A stretch of 61,406 bases of DNA, the filler included, from Hausera hauseri (taxonomy: Eukaryota), in NCBI GenBank assembly GCA_046269625.1. It is 10 parts of 10 records of this genome, joined end to end, with 100 filler letters (N's around TTAATTAATTAA, not from the genome) between each part and the next. Parts side by side here need not be neighbours in the genome. Positions count along the whole stretch, not along the records: positions 40,879 to 47,805 come from JBJURY010051108.1; 9 more parts are not named here. One strand, given 5' to 3'. Both the position numbers and the translations under genes were made by a program. The first letter of the stretch is position 1; every line of letters begins with the position of its first letter. Shown here piece by piece: positions 17,722 through 61,406 of this stretch. The notes under the pieces were generated by a model. The model worked only from the letters and a program-made list of their open reading frames with translations, was not told where the DNA came from and ran no database searches.

Positions 17722-17723
17722 TT

Positions 17724-24940: not shown

Positions 24941-24944
24941 AGTG

Positions 24945-31900: not shown

Positions 31901-33257
31901 GAATCAATGAGGAAATCTATGTGGCGAGTTGTTGTTAACGTAGTTACTGCTTTTACGGTAAATACGGCGAAAAAAGTTTTTGGCTGGTAGAAACTGGAGA
32001 ATGGCCTTCGCCAAGGCTCGCCGTAAGCTCTGGTGGCGGCATTAGCTTTTTGGCAGTGGTGAATATGGACGGCTGTTAGAAGGTAAGATAGTACGTCCGA
32101 CATTCGTATGTTGTGTGCTGCTTCTAAAGGTACAACCAGGGATACACTTATGTGAATCATTCTTAAACTTTGCGTGGTAAATGCAAATAGGGTTGTCAAT
32201 GTGATTATTTTGAGTGTAAAAGCGGCACACAAGATGACATTTTTGCGCTTTACGAGCAAACATGTTATGGTAAAAACAGATCAATGATCGCGCAGGTGAC
32301 CGACGTCTGAGTACAGAGCGTGTATGTATGTATTATGAAGAGCTTCGTTTTTGGCCCGCAACTGTTGTATCTGATATTCTAATGTGCTGTCGTTTGCTGT
32401 AAGCGCTGCAGAAATGACAGGTTGCATGTTTATCTGCAAAATCTCGTACGTTTTGTCTGCAAGTTCGGCTATCTTATCTAGTGCCGTCGATTCCTTGACG
32501 ACGATAAGCAAGGCCCTTATCTGAATCGGTAATGCGTTTGGAAAGTAACGCCGCAACATATAGAAATTATTTTGTTTTGTAACACCAAGTTTTTGCAGTT
32601 GAGCGAGAGGTTCTTAGAAAATCGGATGGTTTTTGTGTACCCATAGCATTATCATTGAAGAATCTATGGATAATGGAATCCATAGACGGTTACGGAAGTT
32701 TTAAAACTGCATTATAGAGATGGGTGTACGGGTCGGATTGTTGAAAGATGTCTAAAATATCGTAAAGAGAAGTCTTTACTGTGTTTGGTAAGAGGCAAAG
32801 TAAGTTTTGAGCTTTGGCTGAGGGATCAGTAATACTATTAGACTGCAGCCAAAGTTTGTGAAAGTTCAGTCATGTCTTGCTGGAATTTTCATAATCGATA
32901 AAATATTCTGTGCACTGAAAAGAAGCGTGTTAGACTGGAGGTAGGGTAAGGGTATAAGTGTCGAAAGTAGGTGGTATGGTGACGGTTGTTGATTTTTGGA
33001 AAAGATTAAAGGTGTTGGTCTAGAGTTAGTTTTATCATTAGTGTCAATGGCGGGTAAAGAATCCATGCCATAAAGGATACGAATATATATGTGAATAATG
33101 ATATATTGTGTTAAAGGAACTGAAAGGTTACGAAAATTGACATTAATTACAGGTAGGTTGTTGTACGTGAGATAAAAGTCACAGATGTTAGCGAAGTGTA
33201 GTACATAATTTTGCAAGTAGAATGCGTCTATAAAATGTGTTGTTCTGTGTGCGAGTA
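29000..33257 (-). mobile_element. Conventional Ty3/Gypsy element (gag-PR-RT-[RNase H deleted]-IN, PPT, start of 3' LTR), decayed
   Basis: Gag LDKIAELADK; PR FLIDSDAAIS; RT FRPCGDYR..IDLSKAYHQI..YINDILI; IN CAACQ..HIDIVGPLP..ITDQG..YHPQLNG..RFHRTLK; GPY motif. PPT AAGGGGAGGGGTGA at 29065-29078 followed by TGTTG at 29064. Confidence 0.92.
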
Positions 33258-34910: not shown

Positions 34911-36068
34911 TCAACTACACAATTTCTTAAATTGGGAATAGTAACTTGGATGTTGAGATGCTGTTGAGAGAAATTCTGTGACTTTCTGATAACGATTATA
35001 AGTGTCAGTAGTAATAGATGTTAAATAAGAAAATAAATCATTTCGGCGATTTTCATCGTACTCTTCATTTATCGAGTTTATTATGTGACGTGTCCAGTTA
35101 TCGAAATACAAATTATAACAGTCATATCGATCTGTACTGAATAAATTGATATCTCCAACCAAATATGTCAATACGTTTCCTATATTCTCACTTTTTGAAC
35201 TTTTAAATGAGTCAAAAAGGATTTCATTTAGACATTTAATAAAATAGCAAATATCCACTTCTGTGTCACGAATTTTATTTTTCATTCCATTGATTTCGAA
35301 CTTGATATATTTCCTGAAAGATTGTCCTTTATAATTCTTAGACATTTCAAATGAAAATGTCCTAATCTTAATATAATCGGTAAAATATTTTTCTGCAGGA
35401 TTAGAACAGTTCATTGAAAAATATACCAAAATGGTTTTCATGACGGCCAACGCCTTACTGTTGACCTCAATTTCACGAGACAAAGAATCAATTAATTTAT
35501 CACACAAATAAGGATAATTAAGAATAAAATTTGTCAATGCAATATTTTTACGGAAGATAATAAGAAGTTGCATTGCGTAACTTAAAATCACCAATTTTGA
35601 ATAGCAGTTGTCATTTAAAGTTTCATTAGCATAGGAGGATAATTTTGAAAAAAATATGAAAATTTCTCCACCATTTATATTTTCCATAAATTTGTTGATT
35701 TTATTTTTATTTTCATTCCATTGAATTTCATTTCTGTGAGTATTAAATTCCTTTATCAAACTATGGGTATTTTTTGATATACTCAGCAAATCTTCAAATT
35801 CATTGATAAATCCATTTACAATATTTGCGTAGCTTTGGATTTTCGCATTATGACATAATTCTTTGAAATTCTTCAAGTCAATGAAATTGTTAAATTTATC
35901 TTCAACATTTTCGATTTTCCTTCGATCAAATGGACAACTGTTGTTTCTTTGATATATTTCAATGAAACAATTTTTACAAAGCGGGTGTTGACATGGTTTC
36001 AGTATGTAATAATCTACATTTTTATATGACTCATAACATATTGAACATTCATCAAATTTCGAATTCAT
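34911..36068 (-). CDS. Intact intronless RING-finger protein (N-terminal C3HC3D RING plus about 320 aa helical domain), putative E3 ligase
   Basis: CSIC-x-PCQHPLCKNC-x-CPFDR in an uninterrupted 385-aa ORF within very AT-rich DNA. Confidence 0.85.
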   Translation of the reverse strand: MNSKFDECSICYESYKNVDYYILKPCQHPLCKNCFIEIYQRNNSCPFDRRKIENVEDKFNNFIDLKNFKELCHNAKIQSYANIVNGFINEFEDLLSISKNTHSLIKEFNTHRNEIQWNENKNKINKFMENINGGEIFIFFSKLSSYANETLNDNCYSKLVILSYAMQLLIIFRKNIALTNFILNYPYLCDKLIDSLSREIEVNSKALAVMKTILVYFSMNCSNPAEKYFTDYIKIRTFSFEMSKNYKGQSFRKYIKFEINGMKNKIRDTEVDICYFIKCLNEILFDSFKSSKSENIGNVLTYLVGDINLFSTDRYDCYNLYFDNWTRHIINSINEEYDENRRNDLFSYLTSITTDTYNRYQKVTEFLSTASQHPSYYSQFKKLCS

Positions 36069-39000
36069 ACTAAACTAATAGTAATTATATGAAGTTAAAA
36101 GGAAATGAAATTGAAAGAAATTTAAAATAAAATTTATTTTTCTTTTATTGGATTAATTAATTTATTTGTTTTATTTTTTTAATTTCAATTTAATTTAATT
36201 TATTTTTAATTTAAAAAGTCAAATTTAACTATTTATATTTTTATTTAATTTTAGGCGTTTCTTTATAAGCATTAAATAAAAAAAATTTTAACTGAATTGT
36301 AGTATGTTTTATTCATTTGTATTTGAAAATAAATATAATGTCTGTTACTCAAAAATAGGCCGCCAAAATTCGCTCATTTCAAGAAGATTTGTTTCAGATT
36401 TCTAAAAGGAATTTTTATCCGAAATTATGTTCATTAAGTTTTTTTCATTTTTCCATATTGAAAAGATGAAAAATCCAAATCAGTGACAAATTTTGTAATG
36501 AGTAGTGACCAAAATTTAAGATTTCTTGTGATTATTAGAGATAATTGTGAATAGAAACTATGTAGAATAGCTTGTTGAAAAATTGTCATATAATACAATT
36601 TCAGCAATAGTTACAAGTAACAAAATCTCAAGACAAATATAATAAAATGTGCAAAATATTGATTGAACATTTTCTAATTTGAATTAAATAAGACAAGGCT
36701 GATGCATGCAAAACAAAAATAAGTTATACATTTACATTCATTATTTAAATTTTCACAAATAAATTGAAATTATCAAAACCGAAATTTTAATAAATTAATA
36801 AAAATTGATTTCAATTACTTTAAAATATAACCAGAATTTAATGCAACATTAAAAATTTGACACATCTACTGAACTTTTATATTTCTTTTTGTTTTAGTTC
36901 ATAGAACTATTTTTATAAAATAATTTCATTTAATGCATAATTTAGAAATTCAATAATTTTGTATTCTTCAAAATTTATGATTTCAAAAGTAAATAATAAT
37001 CCAGTAATAATTTGTTTTAAATAATTCAATTATTATGAAAAATAAAGGATGAAACAAAAATTATTAATATATATTTTTGACTTTTATTAATTTAAAATTA
37101 TTTTAATAAAATTAATTTAATATAAAAAATGCAGTCACTAATGAAATTATTTATAAATACGACTTAATGATATATTTGCACAAATTTTTATCCTAAAAAT
37201 AATTTCTCGATTTGAAAAACATTAGCAAATACAAAGATTTTTACCAATTAAAATATGAAATATGTTTGGTAATTCTAAAATTGGAAAGATATTTTTCTTT
37301 ACACCATTATTTTAGTCCGTTAACTTTCGCTATAAAATTATTAACAAAATGTTATTTTCTGATAAATTAAAAATTGTTGATTTAAATGCTCACAAAATTA
37401 ATTAAAGAAATGATTAATTAAATTTCACTTTTTAAATTATAAAATAAATTAAATTAAATTAAAATTAAAAATTCAATTCAATTTACTAATTAATTCTACA
37501 AGAGAGAAAACATTTAATTTTTAAATTTGTATCAATATCATTTTATTTTAATTTCATACAATTATTATCGGTTTTAGTATGAATTCTAAACGAGATGAAT
37601 GAATAATACATGGAGATTAGCAAAAAATCCAATATACGTTTGTTTAAATTAAATATCGTTACACTGTTTCCATGGATCGCAACTATATTGTTTTATCATA
37701 TCATAATTATTATGATAAAACAATATAATTCAAATCCATGGCAACAAGGGCATAAAATTTACCCGAATTTTTTCTGCTTACTCTTTACGCTATGAGTCAT
37801 ATGAAAATGTGAATGATTTATCATGTGTAAATTATTCTGTGTTATTTAGAATGTAAGTATTTACTAATTCATTAAAATGATATAAAAATTAACGGTTAAT
37901 TTATTTGTCAATCAATTTAAATACCATATATAATTTGTCCACAAAAATATTGAAATATTTAATATTGGTAAAATATATTAACGCTTGCAGTAACACCCGT
38001 AGCAAAATGATAAATTTCAATTTCATCATATGTATATAAACTAAAACTATATACATCCAAAATTAAGCAAAATTTATGGTACTTTTAGGTTGTCTGACAC
38101 GAATCCTGGCTTTACTATTGATTTAGCACATTTTCTGAAATCAGATACGTAATCCTGATGGGATTATCTACGTACGTGATTATTTTCACGGTTTGGAGTT
38201 GTTTGCTACAAATATAGTTCCCTTTGTAAGTATACTGCAGATGCCTTGTTGAGACACAGCCATTGAAAGAAAAGTTCAAAATTTTGTATGTTATGATAAT
38301 TAATGCATAAACCACTATGCATAAAACTACTAGAATACCTTGTATTGATGACACATGTGCCTGTTACGCACCTTTGGAATATTCAGAAAAGAAAATTAGT
38401 TTACAAATACAACACCTTCACTTAAGCAATATATTATCAACAAACCTAGCAAATATGGTATTAAAATCTTCCGAATTAATGATTTTGTTCAAATTATGCT
38501 TTGAAAGGAAGTATTTTCTGTAACAAAGGTATATTTCAAAATGAAACAAAACTATGCTTTGTGAATACTGTTACTTTTGATTTATGTAAATCATTCTTTA
38601 AATAAAAGCGGAATGTTCCATACGACAACTGGTTTACATCAATACTAATATCCAATACTCTATTTGAGTGCAGTACCACTATTCTGGTAAATACAGAGGC
38701 TTTTATTGAAGGTATTTCAAAGAAAGTTGTGAAACCGAATACAAGTAGAAAAAGAGTTGTTTACAAGGGTAACATTTTACCTGATTGTTATTGGGATAAT
38801 GGTTTCAAATCTATTTAACTCCTATCTTTATTGCACAGCGATCTTAGGAAATGTAGTGAATTAAACCTTCTCAAAATTGTATGAGATTATAGCAACAAAA
38901 TTTAGAACAAAATTCATGGATAATATAAATAATAATAATAAATATTTATTAACGGAAGTGACAACATTCATGTGAGATGAATGTCTATACTGTACAGACA

Positions 39001-40778: not shown

Positions 40779-41174
40779 NNNNNNNNNNNNNNNNNNNNNN
40801 NNNNNNNNNNNNNNNNNNNNNNTTAATTAATTAANNNNNNNNNNNNNNNNNNNNNNNNNNNNNNNNNNNNNNNNNNNNTATTGTGTTCGTTGAAACTGCC
40901 TACTGCCCTTACTAATGGTTTCTTCAATCTCAATCACCACCCTATCGCTATTAATCTTTCAACAGACCCAATGCTAATAATTCGCCTAAGTGAACAGTTA
41001 TTACATACCACTACTATCCCCACATATACTTCACCACTAGTACAAGCCCATCTACTTAGACAGTTGTATAATCTATTAACCAGTTCATTGTATATCGAAG
41101 ACACCAACAATATGAATCATAATATCATTGAGTTAAATCTCAATTAATTTCATTTATATTCAGATCTACCGGAA

Positions 41175-42449
41175 TGCATGTTCTGCAGAGCTATTATCCC
41201 TGAAGTGTACAGATTAACACCCTGCCTACATATGGTTTGTTTATTTTGTGTGGAACAAGTCCGAGTACGAGCCCATCCTACACCATACTGCCCTGTTTGT
41301 ACATATGAAATCAAATATTGTATTCATCATAATGCATACCCATCCGACGCCGATCAATCATTACTAGATGCCCAGACCCTTGACGTCATTGAGCCTACGG
41401 ATCATACTACCTATTACTACACCTGGAACATATCCACCCCTTTTTCTATCCCAAATTTTCAACTACACATGTGTTGTCTATGTCAAAAACCTAATAGAAT
41501 AGCCTATCAATTTAGTTGTTGTAATGCTGAGTACTGTGCTCACTGCTATCAGCTAGAATCCCATCATCGATATTTAATCTGCAGTATATGTAACTTTTGC
41601 CCCCAATTTATTTACGCATATTTCCACCATCCAAGAAGAGCCCTCCTTACCATCACTAACACACCAATTCCACAAATACTCCCGACAAGATACTTCCGAC
41701 TAGAACAACAAGCATCAGTTAGAATAGAATTCCCAATTCATAAATTTGACCCCTCTATAATAACCAGACTACCACCGATTGTTCTTCAAACACCTTTACC
41801 TCACATTAATGTTATGACTCTTTTACGACAACCATCTTCAATACCACACCCACGCTATCATCCAGAACAAATTACTAGACCATTACCTGAATTGCCAGTA
41901 CCAGTACCTACAATAATACCCACACCAGCTATTTCTTATAGCCCACCATTACCAATATCTTTACAAGAAGATTGGTTTCCTGTCTTCAGCAAATGTCCAA
42001 TTGATCTTATTTCTGACCTAGCCCCTCCTGACTTATGGGCAACATTACAATCTCACTACTACGACCAACTTCCTACATACGAATGTACTATATGCCTCAC
42101 TGAAAGAGTAACAGTAGTTCAATTTCAATGTAATCACAAACTATGTGCAACCTGTTTCAACAAACTTCGATCCCAATCTCTCAAATCGATCGACCCAGAA
42201 GACGCCCTCCAGATGACTTTTCAGAACGGAATCTCGTGCCCATATTGCAGACAGCCATCAGTCTATTATCATTTCTCCTATACCTACGACAACCGAACCC
42301 AAAGATTATGCCATTGGATGAACCCAGTGAACGACGCGACTTTGACAATCAGACCCCGAAACCTCAGTTTCATCGATGCCAGTACTCAGTGTGATCCGGA
42401 GGACCGAATCCTCTTCAAAAGGGGGAGAAATGTTGAGATACTTTATTGA
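41175..42449 (+). CDS. Triple RING-finger, Pro-rich protein running through the PPT into the LTR
   Basis: CMFC..PCLHMVCLFC..CPVC; CCLC..CCNAEYCAHC..CSIC; CTIC..QCNHKLCATC..CPYC. It is in frame with upstream ORF 40881-41147 across a single TAA. Confidence 0.85.
   Translation, partial: CMFCRAIIPEVYRLTPCLHMVCLFCVEQVRVRAHPTPYCPVCTYEIKYCIHHNAYPSDADQSLLDAQTLDVIEPTDHTTYYYTWNISTPFSIPNFQLHMCCLCQKPNRIAYQFSCCNAEYCAHCYQLESHHRYLICSICNFCPQFIYAYFHHPRRALLTITNTPIPQILPTRYFRLEQQASVRIEFPIHKFDPSIITRLPPIVLQTPLPHINVMTLLRQPSSIPHPRYHPEQITRPLPELPVPVPTIIPTPAISYSPPLPISLQEDWFPVFSKCPIDLISDLAPPDLWATLQSHYYDQLPTYECTICLTERVTVVQFQCNHKLCATCFNKLRSQSLKSIDPEDALQMTFQNGISCPYCRQPSVYYHFSYTYDNRTQRLCHWMNPVNDATLTIRPRNLSFIDASTQCDPEDRILFKRGRNVEILY
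42417..42430 (+). promoter_or_regulatory. Polypurine tract
   Basis: AAAAGGGGGAGAAA immediately followed by TGTTG. Confidence 0.75.
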
Positions 42450-45400
42450 GATACTTTAACAAACTTTAACAAACAGAGATACTTTAACAAACTTTAACAA
42501 ACATCTTTACTTTGAACATTTGATGTCATCTCGACACTTTAACAAACATCTTTCGCTGTGAATATTTGGTGTCATCTTTGAATATTTGTATATACAATTT
42601 TATTTAACTTTCCTATTGCCTCGTTGTTGAGCTTTTTTGATGAGCATGTCTTCCCACTGTCGTTTATAAGTGAATTGTTACCCAAAGAGTTTTGGTGGCT
42701 GGCTGGACAAGAGTGCAAATTGTAAATTGTAAAAGGTAAAAATTTTAATTAGAATGATGCACATAACGGAAACTTCAATCAGGTACACAACGGAAACTTC
42801 AATCAAAATAATGTAAACATAACCTAAACGTTAATGAAAAATGTTGTAAATATATTAATGTAAATATACGCCTTCTGCTGAGAGCCGATAGTGTAATAGT
42901 GTAAACAAAATGAAACAGACGTAAATCTAATAAAGCAAATGGAACATAATGACAATACAAATAATGCGAACGGAAATTAATTTAATCATTGAATTTGAAT
43001 ACAGATGAAACGGTTAAATGAAGCAAACGGAAATCAATTTAAATAATGAATTCGAAAAACTAGACAATGACACACCTTTGGAAAAACCAAAATTTAAAAG
43101 TAAAATTATTACACACCTTTGGAAAAACCGAAATTTTAAAATAGTAATGACGCATTTTAGTATTACACACCTTTGGAAAAACCGAAAATTTAAAATAGGA
43201 ATGACGTATTTTAGAAAACCGGATAATGATTCATAGCGTTACGAGAATAGGTATATAAGCAGACAGTAATTTACAATTCCAACCATTATTAACTGTCAGC
43301 AATCATTGATAAACTTTGAGGTCATTGCGAACCGATTTGACAACTTCAATTCAGATATTTGAAGAAGATCGAAACAAGTTATTCCACAACTACGAGTAAA
43401 TTGTGGTCACTTGAAACAAATACTGAAATTATTCATTTAGTACAATAAGAAATCCTATTGAGTTTCCGAACGAAGATAATTATACATTGACGTCAACTAT
43501 CACCGGACAAGAATCTTATTACAGGATATTGAAGAACCGTTACTACGACAAACCGTTGCTTTATTAAATCAGAAATATAAACATATTATGGCACAACATT
43601 CACTTAATGACCGAGAATCAAATGATGAGATTCCAACCGGTATACCATTTTATATTTTAATAGAAATTTTCATTTTTGCTCACGCCACCTCGAAATTCTT
43701 ACATATGTATACTTGATATTAGTAATGATTTTATAATAATAAATGTTATATACATATTAATTGAAATATATTGCGACGTTGGTGATAATCCACCGTAAAG
43801 ATAGCACTGACGGCGACGAAGTAATTGCCCGATCGAAATTGTGGTGCGTTGAACAGTCGTGGAGTCTCATTATGCCCTCGCTATGAATGACTGCATTATC
43901 GATTTTACCGTGGAAGGACAGCAGGATTAAGTACGGATGGTTCACAATATTCTTGGTCCATGTCAATGATTGAAAAGATTCCCACTGTTTGTATTCAGTG
44001 CAGGGTATCAATCCTAAAACGATTAAACCTACTCGTGGAGTGTATGGAAATGTCTCTAGGACGGTCAGTGATATCATGAGGAAGCCAATGATGGAGCAAA
44101 AAATCCAAGTTATTAACGGATGCCATACTAACGTCAGAAGTTATTTTGAGTGTTTTAGACTGTGGTGATTATATATTTGTTTTACCCATACATGGAGAGT
44201 GACTTATGTTTATATATTTTAGTAGATGAATTAATTGTTAGATTTAACGAATATATGACTCAATAATGAGGTATGCGTTTAGGGATGTCTGATCATTTGA
44301 GAAAGGTTGGTAATTTAAAAATAACTTATCGTTAATTGAGAATGTGTAAATTAATATACTAAAGTGGTAAATGGAGGTAGTACGACTTAAATTACAAGTA
44401 TCCTTCATAGAGAACCAGAATGATAGTCACGGGTAGTAATAAATTATCAAATGGAGAAATTATTTTATAGTTTAAAGAGTTGTTATTATTAACGATGAAT
44501 TACAGTGATGGGTTTTTCCCCTCTTTATTGAGCTGGTGTAACAGGTTTAATGAGTCAATGAATTCACCTTCTAAATGATTTGCTTAGACCAGTACAGTGA
44601 TCATACTTGTTGGGGACATATTCCTTGGATGATTTTATAGTTGATGGTGTTTTGAGGTATGTGTCTCCAAGGCTAGTGTGTTCCGTTGGTAATGAAAAAG
44701 ACTTATTGTAATTCTAAAGGATATTTATTTATACCAATAAACAAAATGTTGCACTGGCTTAATAATAGTATTATGTAAATATTAACGTTCCTTATTTAAT
44801 AGTGTAATGAGTATAAATACTACTACAAAGATTTATGGTTACCTTGTAGATAAACTGCCTTGTAGATAAGTAGAATTCTGGCTGAACTGCATATTACCAG
44901 GATAGAAACTTATAGTCATTGGAACTTTACAGATGACCTCTCGATCACATTTACATTTATTAAGGTACTTGAACAGAACGGAATTAACGAAATTGGGAGG
45001 TTGCTGTGGTAGATTACAGACTGGAAATTACCGATGTTCACCAAAAGGATCAATAAGAAAAACATCCCCTATAAGATGACATTTAATAAGAAACGTGCAG
45101 ATAACTGTTGTATTTTATAGAACATATACTCATAATGGAATTCACGCGTACGCATGTTCGCCTGTATTTGAATAATTCGACTGAGTTTGAGCGTAGCATT
45201 GGATTCATGATAACGATCTGAACTTGTTGTTGAGTCGGCATTTATTTGATGATTGATACGAATACAAACAGATAGATATAGCCTGGGACATGCAAACAAA
45301 TTTAAGTTGTTGGACGTCGATAAACCAGAACGTTTATAGGTTATAATTTAAGAAACTGTAAAGAAACTTTATTAAAATTGATGATTGAAAGACGGATTTG

Positions 45401-45582
45401 CTCTAATATCAAAGGATTGCCTCAGGAAGAAAAATGAATTTTTATATGAAAAGAATAAACTCATATCTGATGATTGACGATTAGCTTATAGGAAAATAAC
45501 GTGACTACACCTTCAGGAAGACATGAAACTTTATATGTGGGTACTTAATTAAGGTTAACAACATTAACCTCTGTACCTAACA
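42431..45582 (+). repeat. Putative long (about 3.15 kb) LTR of family B; alternatively a nested LTR starting at 42842
   Basis: TGTT...AACA termini between a PPT and a PBS. U3-like direct repeats (ACACACCTTTGGAAAAACC x3 at about 43069-43185) precede TATATAAG at about 43253. Confidence 0.6.
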
Positions 45583-45589
45583 TATAAAC

Positions 45590-45607
45590 TGGTGCCCCGA
45601 GTGAGGA
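45590..45607 (+). promoter_or_regulatory. Primer-binding site for elongator tRNA-Met
   Basis: TGGTGCCCCGAGTGAGGA; 17/18 complementary to the animal elongator tRNA-Met 3' end as I recall it (TGGTGCCCCGTGTGAGGA). Confidence 0.8.
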
Positions 45608-45715
45608 ATTTACTCTAGCAAAACCCACTAGTAAAACCACTTTAGCAAAATTATCCTAACATAAATATAAGAAGTATGACAATGACACTGTATAAATGAT
45701 ATTTAATTGTTATAG

Positions 45716-45996
45716 GTAAACTTCAGGTGGAATGCCCGATATGTTTTGAAGAATTGGGCTTGAAATACGCTTTGTTCCGGTGTACACACTACATGTGTAC
45801 ACGGTGTGCGGATACATGGTTGGCAAAACGACAGAACTGTCCCTTCTGTCGCCGTAAGGTAACCAGTTATCGATACTGGAATGCCATAGTCGTCGTATTG
45901 CCCGACGAGGATGAAGAAGAGCCAAGGGTGATCAATGAAGATCCGAACGATTTATATGTAGTGGGTCCCAATGGACTCGTGTATATGGCAATTTAA
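45716..45996 (+). CDS. RING-HC finger module (no ATG; probable spliced exon)
   Basis: CPIC..RCTHYMCTRCADTW..CPFCR; candidate acceptor TTATAG ending 45715; AATAAA at 46000. Confidence 0.8.
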
Positions 45997-46174
45997 TTTA
46001 ATAAAATATTCATTTTTGGCCTTGATGAAGAACAATAGTAGATTATGGGCGGCCCAACGGAATTGGTAATAGGCGATAGGGAGACAATAATTTGATTATG
46101 GTAGTAATAGTAGTATGAAGTCTATCTTAGAAAAAGAATAAATTAAAGAATTAAATGAATTACATTGATTTCAG

Positions 46175-46398
46175 GTTGTATTATCTGCAAGAGATTTCCA
46201 GAAACTTGGGATGAAGAGGAGATTCTCTGCCCTCTATGTTGTTTAGTGGAGAAATTGAATCAACCAGAGGATTTATTTGAATGCGGTCGTTGCAGGGAGG
46301 AAACTAACCTGGGCTTAATGACCATGGATGAAGATTGTTGTTTACTATGTCCTATCTGCGCCCTATCGTATATGACTTGGAAGAAATTGATAAATTGA
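46175..46398 (+). CDS. Cys-rich tandem zinc-finger module (probable spliced exon)
   Basis: CIIC..CPLC..CGRC..CPIC; candidate acceptor TTTCAG ending 46174. Confidence 0.55.
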
Positions 46399-46613
46399 TT
46401 AATTTATGAAATATGTAATGAAAGTAAATTGATTATTGTACCTCGCGAAATTTGGTTTTGTGTCTCATATGTGCCCTAACAGGTGGAATCGTGGATCTGT
46501 GAATGATTATAATATGATACATTTTAACATATAGAAGTCGTTTTATTAGAAGGACTTATTATTGTTAGTAAATGAATATAGAAAATACTTGGAATAAACT
46601 ATTACCATTTAAG

Positions 46614-47074
46614 GAAACGGAAACAGAAATGGAAGTGGAAATGAAGACAGAGTGGAACCAGAAAAATGCCCCATCTGCCTTGAAGAACTGATGGAGGAAA
46701 GGACCACATTGCCCTGCAAGCATAGCTACTGCAGTTCCTGTATCAACATCTGGTTGGGGGAACACAACAATTGCCCTTGCTGTAGAAGAACTTGCACATT
46801 TTGTTGGGTGTGCTCCAAATTAGTAGCAGACGATTTGGCCACTCTATCGTGCAGGTATATATTTTGCCGGTCATGCATTCTCGAATATCTGGCGTGTTGT
46901 CGAATGTGCCCCTACTGCCTGGAAACGGTAGACTTTTACGTCATGGAAGGAATTATTACATACTTGAATGTCGACAACCGCCCATCCATAGTGCTAGTGA
47001 TTGATGAGGACGACGGCAGTTGGCCAGAGGCGTGGAGAAACCCGCAGCCCTATACAATATTAGACATAGTTTAG
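46614..47074 (+). CDS. Double RING-finger module (probable spliced exon)
   Basis: CPIC..LPCKHSYCSSCINIW..CPCCR then CWVC..SCRYIFCRSC..CPYC; candidate acceptor TTTAAG ending 46613; AATAAA at 47090. Confidence 0.82.
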
Positions 47075-47148
47075 AATTAAATTATTATTAATAAAAATTA
47101 ATTGTAGTAAATCGTTTATTTTTATTATTTTAAAGTTATTTTCCCGAT

Positions 47149-47430
47149 TTGAACTCTATACCCGTATTATCACACGGATTTCAACGAAAAACAATTTATC
47201 ATTACTCAGTTTATAACCCAAATGGAACTTTTACCACAATAGGAAAGGAGTGCGCTATTTGTCTTAGCGATTATTCGACCAAGCCGGTGGAACTAGTTTC
47301 CTGCAGGCATCAGTTTTGTCGCTGTTGCATAAGGGAGTGGTTCCTCAAAAATAACACATGCCCGACGTGCCGTACAACTAATAAATTGTTCTTGTACGAA
47401 TATAAATATTATACAATAAAAAACTTATAA
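47149..47430 (+). CDS. RING-HC finger module (no ATG)
   Basis: CAICL..SCRHQFCRCCIREW..TCPTCR; AATAAA at 47430. Confidence 0.82.
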   Translation: MNSIPVLSHGFQRKTIYHYSVYNPNGTFTTIGKECAICLSDYSTKPVELVSCRHQFCRCCIREWFLKNNTCPTCRTTNKLFLYEYKYYTIKNL

Positions 47431-47473
47431 ATAAAAATTTTGTTTTCGATTTTTGAAGTATAATGCATTATAG

Positions 47474-47805
47474 ATGGAATACAGAAAATAAAAAAATTTG
47501 AACTTCAAACCCCCAGACATTGCAAATATACCAGACCAGCACAACCTAATACACTACAGTATCTGATATATTATCAGAATAGACAACTCGGACCAACAGC
47601 ATTCATTAAAAGACGGACAAGTTACTCCAGAATGACAGTATTGGACAACTCCATGAGAGATACACAGAACAGGAAAATATCATTCCTTGAATATCCAAAT
47701 TCACCTGTTCCAGGGGATTTAGCACAAGTATATGCCAATGCCGGACTATTCCGAACTCCAACGGGACAAATAAAATGCCTATATTGTCAGGGAGAATTCC
47801 AATAT
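47474..47805 (+). CDS. BIR-domain (IAP-like) protein, cut by contig end
   Basis: RKISFLEYP..LAQVYANAGLF..IKCLYCQGEFQY matches the BIR pattern R..TF..WP..LA.AGFY..V.CF.C. The frame is open back to a candidate acceptor TTATAG ending 47473. Confidence 0.72.
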
Positions 47806-48180
47806 NNNNNNNNNNNNNNNNNNNNNNNNNNNNNNNNNNNNNNNNNNNNTTAATTAATTAANNNNNNNNNNNNNNNNNNNNNNNNNNNNNNNNNNNNNNN
47901 NNNNNCACCAATATGGAAGCTGGGAAAGTTTACGCTGATTTGACTTACTTTGTTTTTGATTTTAGCTTATGATGATTAATAAATTTTATTGATTTTTTAT
48001 ATATTGTTTCTCGTCACATTAATTTAAATAGATAAATGTATACGGATAAATTAAATGATAATAAAACAAGGCACAACAACGAACAATATACATAATTTAT
48101 ACAAAACAAACAGATCACAATGAATTGTAGCAGTAATTTTATCTGTCTGTCTGCACCGAATTCTGCATGCGTGTGCGTGT

Positions 48181-50200
48181 TTATTCCAAACGCCAATATC
48201 CGTACGTCCAACTCTTATTTCGCCCTACGCACTTACGATTATCTTCATTGCATGATAAAGTCACTTTTGTATTGTTCGCCGTATACAACTGGTGCTCAAT
48301 CGATCGGATAATCGTTTGTGACACAACAGTCTTTGTCCTTCACAGATACGGCGAAAATAACCGTGGTCGATTTCCGCATTTTCGGTCCACAGTCCGTCTG
48401 AAGACTGCAGCACTTTGCACGTAGGAATATCCATTCCCAATACTGCACACGACCCTCACTTGCATCCTTGAAGCAGCCGATTTTGTTGGTGATCGCGCTG
48501 CTATACAACGGATGATCCGGTGGATAGTTTATACATCCATAACTTGCTTAGGTTTAAAACCACTTGTCCGATGTAACTTGGCCGGTCCAGAACGACTTCT
48601 TCCCGGTTTAGCAGCACCGTAACCAATCAATCGGCAATGCGCACTGAACGCCTGAACTTTGCCTTGTTCGTGTACGTGACCAACCGCTTTTCGCTATTGC
48701 ATAGGCGTACATTGAGCTGCTTTTTCAGATTCTTCACTGTTTTTCCGTACAGTGAATTGTTTTTCCGCCTTTTCGAACTTTGTACAGGCTGCGGCTCGTT
48801 TCTCCTAATTTCTATCTATGTACACCTTGAATATGTGAGCCTGAGCAAATCGGACTGCACGATGCAGCTGTGACGCGTACACGCAGATACATGTTGAACT
48901 GTAGCAGACACCAATGGACCACGTAATTCAGCTTCGGTTCATGTGTCATGAGCAGTTTCTTCACTTTTGAGCCTGACGGACATTAGTTAAATGGTGCTAC
49001 CGGTAAATCGTCCAAAACGTCATGCAGCTCATCTGGTACCACGAGATCGACCTCCATCAGATATCCGACTGAGCCTGCCATGTCTGCTCGTGGTAGGTTG
49101 ACCACTATATTATCCAGATCTTGTCTGTCGACAACCCATTCGGATGAACCGTACGGCAAGGGTTGCGAAAGCGCCCAGCCATACAGGTTATTAATATCAA
49201 TGTACAGCAGTGATGTGATATCGGTAGCACGGACCTGATGCTTGTTGACAAATATCACGCCGTCGCTAATACCAACATCAAACAGCCGGTACATTTTCGG
49301 GTCTTTCAGCAGCTCAATGTCTCGATCTAGTGACATTAGAGCTGACGCCCATCTCATTCCCGGTATGGAATAAAAGTTTAGTGGCTTCAGCCTATCTTCA
49401 GCCAACGCTTTCGCTCGAAACGCCTGGAACACATCGGCTAACAGGTACACGTCCAGGTTAAGATACTGGAGCATGTAATCCAACATGTTTCTACAGCCGA
49501 GTTTTGTCCAAGATTCTTGTGCTGTCTGATATTCAAGTTGTGTTGCCTGTCCATCGCGGCGGTAATTCCTCTGCTGTCCGGAGTCGCTCATATGATGTTA
49601 CAATGTCATATGGAAATATGCCTTTGGTGCGTGCAATGTGTGGGGAACTGCGTTGAGGTTATCGGCACGTCCGGCAAGGCATTTACTAGCTTCGTCAGTG
49701 ATTCATTGGGAAATTGCAATGAATCAAGGAAGCGTACCTGGAACCGGTTCATGCCTGCTGATGGGGACAGATACTTCTGCATTGTTGGGATAATGGACAT
49801 TTCCCAGTGCGGAAATCCGTTGATAGCCCATTTCTGTATATGGTGACAATCATAACCTCGGAAATTATGAAAGATCACCGGTAGGAATGGCTGCAAACGT
49901 CTTGCTAAATTGAATGCGTTGCATGCTGCTCCCAAGTATCGACCGGTAAAAAGGTCGTGATCCGGTACGAGCCGTTCCATTGCGTCAAGCGGTAATATTT
50001 TATGGCACAGATAACATTCCTCTGTCTCTGCAAACGTCAGGTGTTCATCTTCATCTGTTCAAATCAGGGATTTTGAGCTGTTATTCCAATACCACGGTGA
50101 GATTTCCGATTCAACTATTGTTTCCAAATGATGCAGGAATTTATGCACACAGTTCCAGCCGTGAAACATGTAATACTGCGATTGACCTTCAGCTTTTATT
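48181..50200 (-). pseudogene. Polinton pPolB, second copy (internally deleted)
   Basis: IFHNFRGYD, FLDSLQF, LDVYLLADVF, LLYIDINNLYGWA, NNSLYGKT, IGCFKD, YGYWRLE*; homologous to contig 1. Confidence 0.92.
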
Positions 50201-52974
50201 TGTACTGTGAGTAGATCGCGTCTCTACCATTTCGACCTCAACATCACTTGATGATTGTAAGATTGATTTACCCATAAGATATTTAGTATGAAAGTTTATA
50301 ACATTTATCTCCTTCATTCGGGAGATGAACCTTATTTTCCTTCTTTTTTGAATTTCCTAGCTTTCTGTTGGCTGTTTACTGAATTACCTTTGAATTAAAT
50401 TTAAACCTTAATATCCGTTTCAATTCCTCCTCACATTCACGTTAGTCAACCGATCGTTCAAAATATTTTTGAAATCAAAGTATCATGTTACAATCAGTTC
50501 ACACAAAAGTATATAGCAGGATAAATTAGTAACTTTTATTCATCTAATATGGAAACGAATTTTACTGTAAATCTGGATTATTTATGACGAATATTCAGAA
50601 GATGTGCAGAATATAATTCTGATTAACAATATGAAAAAATGCAATGATGCTCCGATAACGCATTTGGAGCCCTAAAATGTAACAGCATTTCGCACTTGTT
50701 AAAATCTCCCGCACTATGTTTACATATTTTGAACTTCGTTCCTTTTTTCGTGCTAATGTTTCTTTATTAATCGATTTACAATGTTTTCTTGATGTTCTAT
50801 CAATCTAACATGTATTGGTGCAATTTAAAATAGATAAAATTGATAAAATCAGTTTTGCACGTGCCAATCGATAGTGCACATGAAGCACTACCGATCGGTA
50901 ATGTGTTAGGCGACGGTGCCATTAGTAACCGTTGATAAGCACATTTTTGCAAATTTCACAAATCGATAGCTGCACAGTGCAGTATTAATCGAATCGATCG
51001 GGATAAAGTGCTAATCGATAGTGTACATCAGGGCGCATCGATTGGTGCACAGTTCTGGTGCACTGCACATGTGCAAGTGAGTAGATAGAAGTGATTGTTT
51101 TGCAGCACTTCTCTGATTGGTCCGCCGACCAGTTTTCCCCACTTGATTGGCTAATCTGAACATTTCACTAAAATTTTCTCACGACCGTCCCCTGGCCGAA
51201 AAGGATATCGAGCAATGGACTTTGTACCAAGTAATATCGATAGCCCGTGACGAGGTGAGCAAAAGTTAATGTAGGTACGGTATGCGAAAAATGTAATGAA
51301 AAGGCGCTAGAAGAGGAAGAAGCAAAACAGGAAATTCTCCACGTGCAACGCGAAACATGTTTCTAGCACTGAGAAAAAGTGTACAAGGGGTAGATCGACA
51401 TTGGTGATTGCAATGGACACTGTTGTATCTCGGTCAGACCATGGGAACATGAGGAAAAATCGATGGGAAAAATTTAAATGGGGAAAAATTCCCCTTACAC
51501 AAGTCAAACGGCGATGGAAATGGGTTGAGCTCATAGCCCATCAGTAGTTGAGCCTTTTATATTATAGCCGCCTCACGATAAGACGAAAGGATCCAGGTGA
51601 AAATGGCAACCGAACAAACAACCGAACCGAAAAAACGCATTGTTAAAAGTCTAAGTCAAAAAGGTAGAAGTGAGCTTTCAACCCCATTTCCCAAAAGTGC
51701 TCAGATCGACCTCGGACCACGTTTTCCCCACCTATCTCGCAATTATGAGCATTTCATGTTTTTTGGTACGAGACTTCCCCAGCCGGAAGCACACGTCACA
51801 TGTCACACATGTCACCGATGGAAATCGGTAGAGCTTGATGAGTGGAACAAAATTTTCTATTGCGGTGAGAGTCCAAAATTTTACTGGGCGGCGCTAGAAG
51901 CAAAAGAAGCAAAAGAGAAAATGTTTTGTGAGAAACGAGACACGAGTTACGAATTGTGCAATGTTCGGTGCAGATGTCAAACTGATGTAGGGGAATCGAA
52001 TGCGNNNNNNNNNNNNNNNNNNNNNNNNNNNNNNNNNNNNNNNNNNNNTTAATTAATTAANNNNNNNNNNNNNNNNNNNNNNNNNNNNNNNNNNNNNNNN
52101 NNNNACATTCTTTCTATAAATTCCATTCATTTCATACAAATTTCATGTGTCAAATCAATTTTTTCACAACAGGATATCAACATCATACCAACACATCCTG
52201 GTCATTAAGAAATTAATTAAGGAAGTCAAATAAGGATATGCCCCATGAAAGTCAAAAATATATACCACAAGACACATACAGTCTACAAAATCGAATGCAC
52301 AAAGCGCAAAGCATTCTATTTTCCATATTCGAATTTTCAAACGTTTCAATAAAAGAGATTGTTAAAACACAGAAAATATAATTAGTACTTTATGAACTGA
52401 CCGTGATCGTGTTGACTAACGAATACTAGAAACCCTTTACATAAAACAAAGCCAAAAATAAATAAAAAAGAGGAAGCAAACGAATTGACGGGCATAACCA
52501 TCGAAATGCGGAAACAAATAAAGTGGTTACTTATTTTACATAATGCCCAAATGATATATTTATTGAATTCGAAAAATCAATACTCCGAAGATCTTGAAGA
52601 AGGCAGTATCTGCCGATACGTCGATCAAATATTAAATTTTTGCAGTATCGGCCTTGTTTGAAAATAAGTATCAGAAAGTGGTTAATTTGTGCCATTTTAA
52701 CATTTTCTCTATACAATTGACAGTTGAAAACTAAGAATATTAAGAATAATAAACAGCATTTGTACAAAAGTCAGATAAATGTTCATGTTCAATCGAGCGC
52801 AATGTAATTGTCAGACGAACAACTTAAAGCCAATAATGAATCACCATTAGTGATCACCGGTGAGTGGTCGTTGGTCAGTTTACGTCAAAAATTAGTCACT
52901 CAATATACAAAACATTATTGTTGAGGCCTATGTTGGAATATTACAGTTTCTAGATTTGCTTACGCTTTCACAGA

Positions 52975-55437: not shown

Positions 55438-56670
55438 CACTGCCTGGTCATAAGTAAATGGACACTACAAAAAGTCGATAGTAGAGTTTTGTGTTAACAA
55501 ACACAAATTATACAGTGACAGTTTATTTCACATGACACACTATTGTATGTATTATATGTTGTAGGTGTTAATTGATTTTTACAAAGGCAAGTTTTGATTG
55601 GTTTTGTCATTATCATTATCCTTCATCCATTTAAATCCTTTCTTTTTTCTGTCACTTCTATTTGCATTAAGTCGCGCATACCTTGTGCTAATAAAATATC
55701 GGATTTTATGAAAGGTCGCATTGTTGGATAGTTGGGGACAAGAAGATCTCAACGCAATATTGCCGCTTCTTTGAATCTTCCTCTTTCCATAGTTAACAAT
55801 GTCGTGTGCCAATTTCATTGTCATGAGAAGTGCAGTGTAATACCCCAGACGTGGAGAACCAAAACCAACTCAACTATTTCTTCGAAATATCAGACGAAGT
55901 GTTGCATATAAGCATCGTTAACCGGCTACGGAAATTGCACAAGAAGCTTCAGTGTCTGTAAAAACAGTTCGACGTTAATTAAAAAAAAATTTGGCTACCG
56001 CGGGAGAGTAGCAAAACGAAAGCTTTTAATGTGTGCAACGAATATTGCAAAACGCTTAGTCTGGACGAGGGAGATGAGTCACAAACCTAACAATTTCTGG
56101 CAAAGCGTCATCTTTAGTGATGAAAGTTCCTTTCAGCAATTCCCTTCTGGTGGCCCTACCTGGGTGTGGTGTCGTTCCCACCAAAAATTTCAAAACAAGC
56201 GTCTCCAGCCAACTGTGAAACACAGTTTAGTGTCTTGGTGTAGTGAGCTATTTGTTGGAGTGTGAGATCAGATCTGGTACGTTGCCAAAGTTCAATAAAT
56301 TCAACAGCCTCATGTCAACTACTTCAAGAAGGCCTTCTGCCAGCCTACCAAGTTCGAAGTACTTCCCGAATAAATTCTCCCTTCATGCAAGACAATGTAC
56401 CTTCCTACGCCGCTCGAGCAACTAAAGCATGGCTGGAACACAAAGGAATTTTATGATTAAATTGGACTGCTCAATCACCGGATATAAATCCGATTGAGTC
56501 GGTGTAGTTTAATTTCGATCAAGCATATCGAAAACGAAAAGACAAGCCGAAATCTGTTGATATTCTGTTTTATGCTCTCAAAGAGGAATGGGCAGCGATC
56601 CCACAGGCAAAAAATATTAAGCTTATCCAGCCTATGCCAGAATGTGTATCTGAACTTTTAAATGCCAAAA
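55438..56670 (+). mobile_element. Tc1/mariner transposon, 3' truncated and decayed
   Basis: TA followed by the TIR-like CACTGCCTGGTCATAAGTAAATGGACAC; VIFSDESSF, FMQDN and W.AQSPDINPIE motifs. Confidence 0.88.
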
Positions 56671-57311: not shown

Positions 57312-60288
57312 AATGTAGCCGTTTGATGCATACACCTAACTGCATGTAAAATTGAAACAGACGCCAATAAACTGTGTAATTTTGCTTGGGTTCGTGCATC
57401 ATAAGCAGCTTCTTCACCTTCGAGCTCGACGGACATTGGTTAATTGTTGCGACCGGCAGTTCATCCAGAAAGTCATGCAGCTCATCTGGCACCACAAGAT
57501 CGACTTCCATCAGTTATCCGATTGAGCTGTTTTCTGTTGTGTCTGCTCTAGGTAATTTTCAATTATGTCGTCCAGGTCCTGTTTGTCGACTATCCATTCA
57601 AATGAACCATACGGCAAGGGTTGTGAAAGCGCCCAGCCCTACAGGTTATTAATATCAATATACAGCAATGATGTTGTATCGGTATCACAGATCTGATGCT
57701 TGTTGACACATTTCATAATGCCGCAAATACCAACATCAAACAGCCGATACATTCCCGGGTCTTGCATCAGCTCAATGTCTTGATCCAGTGACATTAGAGC
57801 TGATACTCAACTCATTCCCGGTATGGAATAAAAGTTGAGTGACGCCAGCCTATCTTCAGCCAACGCTTTCGCCCGAAACGCCTGGAACACATCGGCCAAT
57901 AAGTACACGTCCAGTTTAAGATACTGAAGCATGTAATCCAACATGTTTCTACAACCGAGTTATGTCCAACACCTCTGTGCATTCCGGTATTCATCCTCTG
58001 CGAAACCTTCCACCACAACGGTAATTCCTCTGCTGTCTGGAGTCGCTCATATGATGTTGCAAAGTCATATGGAAATATTCCTTTGCTGCATGCAATATGT
58101 ATAGGGAAATGCGTTAAGGTTATCGGCACATCTGGCAAGGCATTGACCAGTTTCGCCAGCGATTCATTGAGAAATTGCAATGAATCAAGGAAACGTACCT
58201 GAAACCCCTTTAGGCGTGCTGGCAGGGACAGGTCCTTCTCCATTGTTGTTGGTATTATGCACAGTTCTCGGTCCAAAAATCCGTTGATCGCCCATTTCGG
58301 TATATGGTGACAATCATAACCTCGGAAATTATGAAAAATCACCGGTAGAAATAGTGGCACACGCCTCGGTAAATGGCATGAATTACATGCTGTTCCCAAG
58401 TATCAACCTGTAAAATGGTCGTGATCCGGTACGAATCATTCTTGTGCATCAAACGGTAATATTTTGTGGTACCGATAACATTCCTCTGTGACTGCAAGCG
58501 TCAGGCGTTCATCTTCATGTGTGCAAATCGGAGGTTCTGTGCTGTTATTGAGATACAACGGTGCGATTTCCGACTCAACTATTGTTGCCAAATGATGCAT
58601 TACATCAATCACGCAGTACCAGCCGTAAAACATGTAATGCTGCGGTTGACCTGCAGCTTTTATTGGGACAACCAATATACCGACGGCAATTGGAAGGTAT
58701 TTTTCATCGTATACGTCGTGTCATTGTAGGATTGCTTCGGTATCAGCATATATCACATATACTGGACTATACGTCTTAGACCAGTCACTAAATCGCAGCT
58801 CCTTTTTGGCTGGCATGACGTACATTGTTGTTCCTGATGCATTCTGTGTGCACAGCGTCACATGTTTTCCCACGTGGTTTCTGATCTGAAGCCATGCAGA
58901 CATGTAGGACACCAGTTTCAACGTATTTGTTTTTGGACAAACTGATGGTGATCCATGTTCAACAATCGGTCCAAATTTGTTACGGCCACGTAATGAAATT
59001 TTTCTGCCTGCTCCAACAATAACAAATTTACTCTGCGTCCATTCAGGTTCCAACTTCGATAGATTATATCCACATGTGGATTCTTGTCGATTTATTCGTC
59101 TGCCGGTATTTCAACTATTGTATTGTACCGGAACACGTTGATTGACAGCATCGGATTACGCCGTTCAAATGTTAAAATGGTTTTTAGTTTCATCGGCATC
59201 CAGTTTTTGTCAAATTGCAATTCGGAAAAATACTGCCGATACTGACTTGGACGATATGCACTATATCTGTGCACTTTGTCATATTTTAGTACAGCCAGAA
59301 TACTGTAAATAAAACAGTAATCATCGTCCGTGTTTTTTACATTTACTACCGTATAAGTGTGCTTTAGATCTTCAGGTGTCGGTATAAATGAACGTCCGGA
59401 CAGGTAAATTTTCAATCGAATTTGTTATAATAAAACCGAAAGTGACGATTTTTACTACTTGCCAACCACTGCCCTTTTTGGTGTAGTTGGCGATTTTTTC
59501 GTCCAGCTTTTCTCCTATGTTGGCAGTGAAATCTTTGGAATATGGAGCTGTTCGATGTCACAGGTACCATTGTTTCCTGCCACTCTGCAAATTCTCAAAT
59601 TCTGCAAGTGCATTATATTGCACTTTGCAGTTGTGGTGTTTGAATTTCTCCACTTCGGTTTCTAACCGGTTGCGCACATGAGCGGGTACATGCCTCAGTA
59701 GAATTGCTGATTTCGCCGACATGTTTAATTTTATTTCCATGTACGATCTGTTTGGGTCCTACTTGACAGTAATTGGCGGTTCCTGCTGCTGCTGCTGCTG
59801 ATGCTCTGTATTGCTGCATTGCAGGTATTCGTCAAGACTTTTTGACGCTTGACGCTTTTTGCTTCCAACAATATTTCCTTTTTAGACCTCTGAAACTGGT
59901 TCAAGTGGTCTTTGTGCTCATTATAAAATTGTTCATAGTTGATTTCATCAACTACAGAACAACAACCGGGACAAACGTAGGCCCGTTTACCGTACACCGT
60001 TGTGGCCGCATAGTACTGCTCCATTTTACTATGGCAACCATCAACGTTGTGCACTTCACTAGTACAATACCTTGGGTAGAAGGAGCAATGCACACGCATC
60101 ATCTTCTTAGACCGAGTAAACGGTCCGAAATGATGCTTCTGCACCTTATGAAAGTTGGCCTATGGACAAGGGGCCGAAATACTACCTCACGTTGGGCACA
60201 AATATGAGTCCGTATCAACGAAGTAATATTTAGCCAATTGTTGATGGTACTGCTCCTGCTCCATATGTATGCGCGAGATGCAATACAT
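57312..60288 (-). pseudogene. Polinton pPolB, third copy, retaining the longer N-terminal region
   Basis: YADTE, DHFTG, IFHNFRGYD, KGIFPYD and LLYID motifs. N-terminal IPTP..VVNVKNTDDDYCFIYSIL..FERRNP..SINVF segment at 59092-59415. Confidence 0.92.
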
Positions 60289-60448
60289 GGGATAATTAGT
60301 ACACATCTAAATAAAAAACAAAATAAAATGTTTTATATTAAGTTATAAATACTGTAAATTTGAATATGAAAACTTATTTGTCGGTCTCCTTACTGCCTTA
60401 TAAACAATTATTCTAAACGCCACAACAATAACAAAAACTAAATATCAC

Positions 60449-60792
60449 ATGAAACAGTACCTAGAAAGCGAGATTAAGAAACTGACCGATGATATTTTGA
60501 CTGGACATGTGTTTGATGTTCAGTATTTGTGCGAGCTCGCAGAAACCAGAATAATTAGTTGACAGGAATAGATTGAATTACTTGTCAGATCTCAATTCAT
60601 ACAACGTACCAAAGATGAAATAATACGAAAACGGCAACAACAACAACGACGGATTAACTTCCTCATTGGACTTATTTTTCTGCTTCGCTTTGTATTGTAA
60701 TGGAAAAGTTGATTGACCGTTTTTAATCATACATTTGCACATATGTTGTTGCGTTTGTTTTCGTAAATCAATATAATTTATTTCTCGTGTCT

Positions 60793-60824
<32 letters not shown>

Positions 60825-61267
60825 ACATTTCAGTATAAATACTTGTGCTGCGTTACTGCATGATATAACGGCATGTCCAATTTATAAGAATTCATTCATT
60901 TATATCACTCCTTCGACGGTCTCCGGAGTCACCTTTACAATCTTTATCGACCTTTACATGATGCAGGATACTTTTCCCCCAAACGATACTCCTACGTGCC
61001 GAGGAGAATTAGAAAGTACGCGAACCCCACATACAGCTCATGAAGCAGGTTGTTTGTGACATGGATATATTAATCGGCCAGATTTTTCGCACTTAGCAGA
61101 AATTGGTGAATACCTATGCACTGTGTGCCAACAGTCCACGTCAAATGCAGTTTGTGGATGATTTTGTCCAAAGCGACCAGATGGATTATGTTCCAATGTG
61201 GCAATTGGCGGATTCGATTTTCTTTAGGTAACATTTCAATGTAACCAATTTCGAGGATCTCGTTCAT
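60449..61267. pseudogene. Decayed Polinton accessory genes homologous to 1-668
   Basis: Shared translated segments LTDDI.TGHVFDV (+) and RSIKIVKVTP.TVEGVI (-). Confidence 0.55.
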
Positions 61268-61330
61268 TCTCCTACGAAATTTGTTAACCCATGTTGTTTG
61301 TGTTCTCCTAACTCATTAAAAACGATTTAA

Positions 61331-61406
61331 TTGTTGTTTTTGTTGTTGATGTTGTTGTTGGTGGTGGTGTTGTTGTTGTTGTTATTGTTGTTGTTATTGT
61401 TGTTGT
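61331..61406. repeat. (TTG)n microsatellite
   Basis: Imperfect TTG/GTG trinucleotide run; a shorter run lies at about 60793-60824. Confidence 0.9.

Follow-up and report, generated by a model that had tools for sequence, protein, structure and literature searches.

In the genome of Hausera hauseri, an LTR-like end and a primer binding site (PBS) of the tRNA-Met type are followed on the same strand by a row of RING, zinc and BIR reading frames, which raises the question of what kind of element carries these frames and how they could be expressed. The window analyzed here, a stretch of 61,406 nucleotides, is composed of short contigs and N-linkers. The contig under study occupies positions 40879–47805 (6,927 bp); the BIR ORF is cut by its end and nothing beyond 47805 is physically linked to it. 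The contig carries, in this order, a multi-RING frame (ORF0), a polypurine tract, an LTR, a PBS, the modules R1, Z2, R3 and R4, and a partial BIR ORF (B5). This layout is permuted and leads from a 3' internal end over the LTR (3,152 bp) to a 5' internal start; the single LTR could be either the collapse of two LTRs or one LTR common to tandem copies. Overall, the contig is read here, with a probability of about 0.58, as the 3' end, the LTR and the 5' end of a repeated, very likely giant Gypsy-type element whose RING, zinc and BIR modules would be alternative last exons, each spliced singly onto a shared coding leader in the LTR.

Contigs of four sequencing runs (X1–X4) were aligned to the contig at 85% likeness. 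Summed depth does not represent copy number and only the contrast between parts of the contig was used. One X2 contig is identical to the window over 286 nt at low depth and the depth profiles of X2–X4 follow that of X1 at roughly 1/20 to 1/2000, which suggests that their signal is carry-over from X1; the three runs were not counted as independent organisms.

The LTR junction and its relatives

The features from the contig start to the PBS are as follows.

40879..41147 (+): tail of an upstream internal ORF, cut at the contig start; open frame without a Pfam match, X1 summed depth 12,000, both listed variants silent
42417..42430 (+): polypurine tract, directly 5' of TGTT; a near-identical tract precedes the LTR of the integrase-bearing locus L050
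42431..45582 (+): LTR, 3,152 bp, TGTT...AACA, a low-depth variant; its two borders coincide with loose contig ends
43107..43258 (+): two 54-bp tandem repeats, then a TATA-like box (candidate promoter, from sequence features)
43588..43639 (+): candidate coding leader (weak), the first ATG after the TATA-like box, 17 codons and one base, then GT
45590..45606 (+): PBS of the elongator tRNA-Met type, 16 of 17 letters as in the published human tRNA-Met PBS

The original prediction of an LTR-like end followed by a tRNA-Met PBS was confirmed: the AACA end at 45582 is paired with TGTT at 42431, so that the stretch 42431–45582 has the TG...CA ends of an LTR, and the PBS agrees in 16 of 17 letters with the human sequence printed in PMC1084362. 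The match is the only one in the window and none was found in 100 shuffles. ARAGORN detected no tRNA, either in the window or at the PBS match of the seven loci tried, and the primer identity therefore rests on likeness to the published PBS. A scan of viral contigs did not find the PBS 17-mer, and the predicted folding of the PBS-leader RNA is no better than that of shuffled sequences (z = -0.62). The gap between the LTR end and the PBS is an atypical 7 nt (45583–45589), compared with 1–3 nt in 48 related loci. A motif resembling an LTR end recurs about 65 nt past the PBS (45655–45668).

Both LTR borders are visible in the aligned contigs. At the 5' border, 37 X1 contigs and 7 X2 contigs go loose just behind 42434 with poorly agreeing sequence, indicating that many different LTRs follow the same purine tract, and an X1 contig with a depth of 31.7 bridges the tract-LTR junction. 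At the 3' border, the match of one X2 contig (92% alike) breaks off exactly at 45582, and 72 unlike letters follow.

A scan of metagenome contigs for the exact PBS 17-mer returned 92 loci (45 of the 80 listed come from one assembly). An AACA within 4 nt before the 17-mer is present in 48 out of 55 AT-rich loci versus none of 37 GC-rich loci; 50 loci with this or a similar end were kept and 42 were dropped. Locus L050 encodes RNase H and integrase (E values 1e-15 to 5e-22) and a 709-aa 3' ORF, followed by a near-identical purine tract, a 1.8-kb LTR and the PBS, in a layout permuted as in the window contig. Its post-PBS ORF is gag-like and weakly matches the gag found in the window, and in locus L075 the same PBS is followed by Gag (E 7e-5, slightly below the cut-off) and by CCHC knuckles (E 2e-13). 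Given that the PBS, the purine tract and the permuted layout are shared with L050 and its integrase and gag-like ORF, the contig very likely contains a real Gypsy-type LTR junction.

The tract together with TGT was found in four of the 50 loci, three of them at a plausible place, and most loci are too short upstream. Large 3' accessory ORFs of 505–709 aa without a Pfam family reach to or through the purine tract in L050 (2316–4442), L002 (1714–3732) and L013 (2010–3524), all listed as (-); those of L050 and L002 cross the tract and stop in the LTR. A tblastn search with the six window ORFs gave no match in the 50 loci, which leaves the two priming sites and the layout as the tie to the contig. 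The PBS-sharing Gypsy loci of one metagenome assembly (L050, L075, L002, L013 and others) resemble the contig in the 17-nt PBS, the purine tract, the AACA end, a 3' ORF ending within the LTR and accessory ORFs preceded by acceptor-like sites, but differ from it in their LTRs (1.5–1.8 kb where measurable), their PBS gap (1–3 nt) and their accessory ORFs, which are coiled-coil-like and have their own ATG.

The RING, zinc and BIR modules

The predicted same-strand order of RING, Cys8 module, double RING, RING and BIR was found as described: all modules lie on the + strand, Pfam supports the RINGs, and the BIR is represented by its N-terminal half only. Two aspects had been overlooked, namely ORF0 at the 3' end of the element and the architecture of splice acceptors and poly(A) signals.

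41164..42449 (+): ORF0, 428 codons; two RING-like domains (Pfam RING matches), a Pro-rich linker and, in the centre, a Cys-rich zinc region
45716..45996 (+): R1, RING-HC module (Pfam RING) with an acidic tail; phase-1 AG before it, AATAAA at 46000; rare or divergent among copies
46175..46398 (+): Z2, zinc module by its Cys pattern (four CxxC pairs); phase-1 AG before it, no AATAAA after it
46614..47074 (+): R3, canonical RING and degenerate second RING (Pfam E 6e-14, two stretches); phase-1 AG before it, AATAAA at 47090
47243..47430 (+): R4, RING module (Pfam) without any Met; phase-1 YAG at 47242 (alternative 47209), AATAAA both upstream of the stop and at the stop itself
47474..47805 (+): B5, N-terminal half of a BIR (Pfam, Atlas), cut by the contig end; phase-1 AG before it, own Met ahead of the BIR

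The RINGs of R1 (45733–45849, Pfam E 2.8e-10), R3 and R4 (47251–47370, Pfam E 6e-12) score above the Pfam curated cut-offs. In a search of solved sequences, R3 matched 81 entries, with RNF126 as the best (E 5e-10) and the herpesvirus RING 1chc among the matches. All eight zinc ligands are present in RING spacing in R1, the first RING of R3, R4 and the two ORF0 domains; the second RING of R3 lacks the His ligand. Furthermore, R1, the first RING of R3 and R4 all keep a hydrophobic residue after Cys1, the helix Trp and a Pro-x-Cys-Arg end, which together form the motif of active E3 ligases, and BIR proteins are known to bind caspases. From this family knowledge, the RINGs of R1, R3 and R4 are predicted to be ubiquitin ligases and the BIR is predicted to inhibit cell death. 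Aligned to R1, the two halves of R3, R4 and the first domain of ORF0 show 22–41% identity, and the RING modules may have arisen by duplication inside the element.

Z2 belongs to no Pfam family and gave only unnamed or zinc-ribbon leads in the Atlas. The Pfam BIR match of B5 (E 0.058) is below the curated cut-off, with only profile positions 3–46 of 70 on the contig; in the Atlas, 30 out of 30 matches carry a BIR at 0.90–0.92, at a recognition value rated weak. IAP proteins have a complete BIR with a C2HC zinc site, often together with a RING at the C-terminus. In B5, a Met precedes the BIR match by 15 residues. No relatives were obtained in homologue searches with B5, and no viral homologue was found.

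ORF0 opens at a phase-1 AG, crosses the purine tract and stops within the first bases of the LTR, and its first Met lies one residue past the first Cys. Two homologous proteins, P0001 (65% identity) and P0002 (59% identity), both run to or through the same purine tract and differ from ORF0 at the 3' end only in the last few codons; P0001 likewise begins at a Met inside RING1. Judging from the sequence variants, ORF0 is under purifying selection, with 14 out of 15 listed variants being silent where 30% are expected (P = 5e-7; 40 variants listed of 867 variant rows). Of the variants listed in the 5' modules, 5 out of 12 are silent, which is no significant excess (P = 0.28, same 40 of 867 rows). 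A profile search with ORF0 returned four proteins, three of them clearly related, and no relatives were found as DNA in metagenome or viral contigs. The AlphaFold model of ORF0, built from three sequences, has a pLDDT of 27.5.

The modules had also been described as free of internal stops, unlike most mobile ORFs of the window. This contrast was seen, with 1,486 and 1,286 coding nt nearly unbroken on the contig and a 4,460-nt gag-polyprotein stretch of the window in 12 pieces over three frames, but it is weak evidence for modules of 61–152 codons.

Candidate splice acceptors, poly(A) signals and a proposed shared leader

The modules do not have the structure of separate, free-standing genes that was assumed at first, since the four complete 5' modules have no Met before the first Cys and R4 has no Met at all. 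Overall, five of the six ORFs lack an ATG ahead of the domain: the first Met follows the first zinc ligand in R1, Z2, R3 and ORF0, R4 has none, and B5 is the exception. A phase-1 AG is located just before the domain in all six. In five of the six ORFs, the first AG is in phase 1 and no more than 20 nt from the upstream stop, compared with 43 out of 133 other ORFs of the window (P = 0.015; P = 0.075 if the distance is disregarded), R4 being the ORF that deviates. If a T at -5 and an AT-rich tract are added, criteria that were picked after the sites were seen, the counts are 5 out of 6 and 1 out of 133. An AATAAA is found at the stop of R1, R3 and R4 (three of the four complete 5' modules, compared with 7 out of 133 other ORFs), each time followed by T-rich sequence, in AT-rich spacers that raise the chance of this signal.

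Start-less phase-1 modules with poly(A) signals have the anatomy of alternative last exons, which would require a common upstream exon that supplies an ATG, whole codons and one additional base. The odds somewhat favor the view that these separately polyadenylated modules are spliced onto such a shared leader. Splicing itself is a prediction from the sequence. Within the LTR stretch, 19 out of 60 ATGs have a suitable donor (about one in three would by chance) and the leader can therefore not be singled out; the ATG at 43588 with a donor at 43640 fits. According to the proposed mechanism, transcription would start in the LTR, and any single acceptor would receive a leader that ends in phase 1. 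The 5' modules would each be cleaved at their own poly(A) signal, ORF0 would end in the 3' LTR, and gag-pol would lie further downstream and be read from a longer RNA. The products would be small proteins, with ubiquitin tagging of host proteins and restraint of cell death as their predicted roles.

The depth of X1 differs strongly along the contig. Summed depth is 12,000–35,000 over 40879–42495 (including ORF0), 29–65 in the bins of the LTR interior and 4,259 in the PBS bin; it is 138 over R1, about 500–1,650 over Z2, R3 and R4, and 1,900–9,100 over the BIR. No other coding part is as deep as the BIR and ORF0. The expectation that the cassette is repeated in the genome thus holds for the internal parts, which are highly repeated, but not in the sense of a uniformly shared cassette, as the depth of the modules varies more than 60-fold. 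Near the end of Z2, a one-base indel sets most of the X1 depth apart from the window. Copies that are 10–15% diverged cross Z2 and R3 without gaps (for R3, seen in X2 and X3), and 9 of 12 listed indel rows (of 44) fall into spacers of the cassette region and one into a module. The modules look like duplicates within the element that are gained, lost or diverging between subfamilies in the style of a viral accessory region.

Acceptor-like sites also occur in the PBS-sharing loci. A diverse family of coiled-coil-like ORFs (160–215 aa) is located 850–1300 nt before the PBS in L004, L009, L041, L044, L063 and about 24 more loci. These ORFs have no firm Pfam family, each ATG is preceded by an acceptor-like site, and they probably sit inside the LTR. 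An in-frame ATG within 10 nt of the acceptor-like site is present in 21 out of 29 LTR-embedded ORFs, which are homologous and not independent, versus 92 out of 354 such sites overall. This proximity suggests that spliced accessory genes are a habit of the PBS-sharing clade.

A wider reading is put forward tentatively, at slightly less than even odds. The element would be a plug-in effector system in which one LTR leader is joined to any of at least six interchangeable last exons at both element ends, each with its own poly(A) site. The exon set and the LTR type would vary between subfamilies in a virus-like arms race with host apoptosis and ubiquitin defences.

Known systems and rival explanations

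The closest precedent is Burro (GYPSM1), a group of giant planarian Gypsy elements that exceed 30 kb and encode a giant Gag-Env-Pol polyprotein. PMC6431247 describes BIR, MATH, BCL2, ubiquitin-like and env domains in these elements, together with an accessory ORF that in the D. tigrina element lies upstream of the polyprotein. The RING and BIR region of Burro1 (B-IAP) is reported to shield stem cells from caspase-mediated apoptosis (PMC13465017, citing Lee et al. 2026). Both sources bear out the statement in the original prediction that BIR domains occur in planarian giant Gypsy elements, and the Burro precedent lowers the novelty of a RING/BIR cargo. Cargo of the Burro kind (BIR and RING) is present on the contig as separate modules with an incomplete BIR. 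The element under study shares with Burro a long LTR and a BIR, RING and ubiquitin/apoptosis cargo, and would share with the D. tigrina Burro-like element an accessory ORF upstream of the polyprotein. The Burro cargo is described as mostly organized as domains of a 5,000-aa polyprotein, whereas the contig carries at least six separate stop-terminated modules at both element ends, most of them without a start codon, and no MATH, BCL2 or ankyrin domain was seen on its 6.9 kb. A Gypsy-group accessory protein made from a spliced mRNA is known from Cer1 of C. elegans (CERV; PMC10309623), but it is a single RNA-export regulator with neither an array of alternative last exons nor RING or BIR domains. 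PMC8532177, PMC11410931 and PMC13238120 provided background only.

Large DNA viruses carry RING E3 ligases and IAPs, and the late genes of adenoviruses form transcription units with a shared leader. The similarity lies in a variable block of small host-modifying proteins and in a choice of acceptor and poly(A) site (predicted for the element), and the differences are that the block resides in an LTR retroelement and that the shared leader would have to supply the start codon. The literature searched, which did not include the two primary Burro papers (Grohme et al. 2018, Lee et al. 2026), contains no description of a spliced multi-RING array in an LTR element. The RING/BIR cargo is thus known from Burro, and the array of start-less, phase-1, separately polyadenylated modules is apparently the distinctive and undescribed feature. 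Given the Burro1 report, retrotransposon-borne apoptosis control is a live topic. If the main reading is true, such control would extend from one captured gene to an expandable gene family with its own splice-based expression, in a retroelement with the transcription map of a complex virus; if the modules are silent, a new Burro-like family with RING and BIR cargo remains.

No gag or pol was found on the contig (40879–47805), which ends at 47805, 2.2 kb past the PBS, and the contig does not establish the claim that the modules stand in place of gag. Of the giant LTR element with a 5' RING/BIR block that had been predicted, the LTR element, the 5' block and its repetition are supported, and the replacement of gag is a prediction, as are the giant size and the ligase and anti-apoptotic activities. 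The accessory genes would replace gag-pol if the contig belonged to a non-autonomous LTR derivative that a Gypsy helper sharing its priming sites mobilizes in trans. The distance to gag would fit this explanation, as gag begins within about 500 nt of the PBS in six loci (L038, L041, L046, L050, L054 and L075) and at about 300 nt in the window's other family. However, other PBS-sharing loci also lack a long ORF for 1.2–3 kb past the PBS, the published description of a Burro-like element places an accessory ORF before the polyprotein, and ORF0 is strongly constrained, so that a non-autonomous derivative is doubtful. In L063, an ORF at +3045 is gag-like by eye only and has no Pfam match. The gag contig of the window (16822–22553) was considered as a continuation and ruled out, since it has an LTR end of its own and, at 17717, a different PBS. 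Another explanation keeps the LTR element and regards the 5' modules as captured or duplicated exon fragments with acceptors and poly(A) signals, mostly untranslated passengers, with only ORF0 and perhaps the BIR gene at work. The near-neutral share of silent variants in the cassette (5 out of 12), the uneven module depth (138 to 1,650 versus 4,259 at the PBS), the degenerate second RING of R3 and the Z2 indel in most of the X1 depth would agree with passengers. The zinc ligands of R1, R3 and R4 are nevertheless intact, 10–15% diverged copies are free of gaps across Z2 and R3 with the listed indels clustering in spacers, and the clearly constrained ORF0 has the same acceptor pattern, which makes passengers unlikely, if less so than a non-autonomous derivative.

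The modules might also all belong, as exons, to one or two longer mRNAs made by splicing or trans-splicing; the BIR exon could, for instance, be joined to the far downstream ORF0 to encode a BIR-RING IAP. Such a product would recall the B-IAP of Burro1, described as RING plus BIR, and would suit the high depth of the BIR and ORF0 and the Met that B5 has of its own. R1, Z2, R3 and R4 each end in a stop, three of them with an AATAAA, and therefore cannot be internal exons. A flatworm spliced leader ends in AUG and would need an acceptor in phase 0, but Z2, R3 and ORF0 have no phase-0 AG before the domain, and longer mRNAs are accordingly considered improbable. A host RING gene cluster, a DNA-virus insert or an assembly chimera beside an LTR is more improbable still. 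The assembly consists of short contigs, none of the listed contigs spans the stretch, and polymerase-B-like fragments were noticed by eye on other contigs of the window. Nonetheless, the depth over Z2, R3, R4 and B5 is far above that of the LTR interior, ORF0 crosses the purine tract in the window as well as in P0001 and P0002, and the bridging X1 contig connects the tract with the LTR.

Further mobile elements were noticed elsewhere in the window. Pieces of decayed Burro-like polyproteins are located at 5167–9791 (-), 16822–22553 (+) and 22654–25000 (+) and encode, in Burro order, gag, CCHC, a coiled-coil region, a stretch judged ubiquitin-like by eye, a Monjiviricetes-type fusion protein, protease and RT. 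These neighbours would hint, tentatively, at a triclad host. Antisense ORFs lie behind an RT region at 25573–28468 (-), and one of them ends in a Thr-rich stalk and a membrane segment; it resembles by eye an ORF at the start of L002 and has no Pfam match. An ORF of 387 aa at 34911–36074 (-) is intronless, has its own Met and carries a RING at its N-terminus (Pfam E 2.5e-9); it lies on an AT-rich contig with two inverted repeats (34461–34597/39174–39310 and 36072–36252/37394–37574). Three related decayed copies (75–86% alike) at 1–5066, 47906–52004 and 57312–61406 contain polymerase-B-like and endonuclease-VII-like fragments and are, by eye, presumably Polinton or adintovirus-like. An ordinary decayed Gypsy element with RT and integrase occupies 28479–33257 (-), and fragments of a Tc1-like transposase (by eye) are present at 55900–56500 (+).
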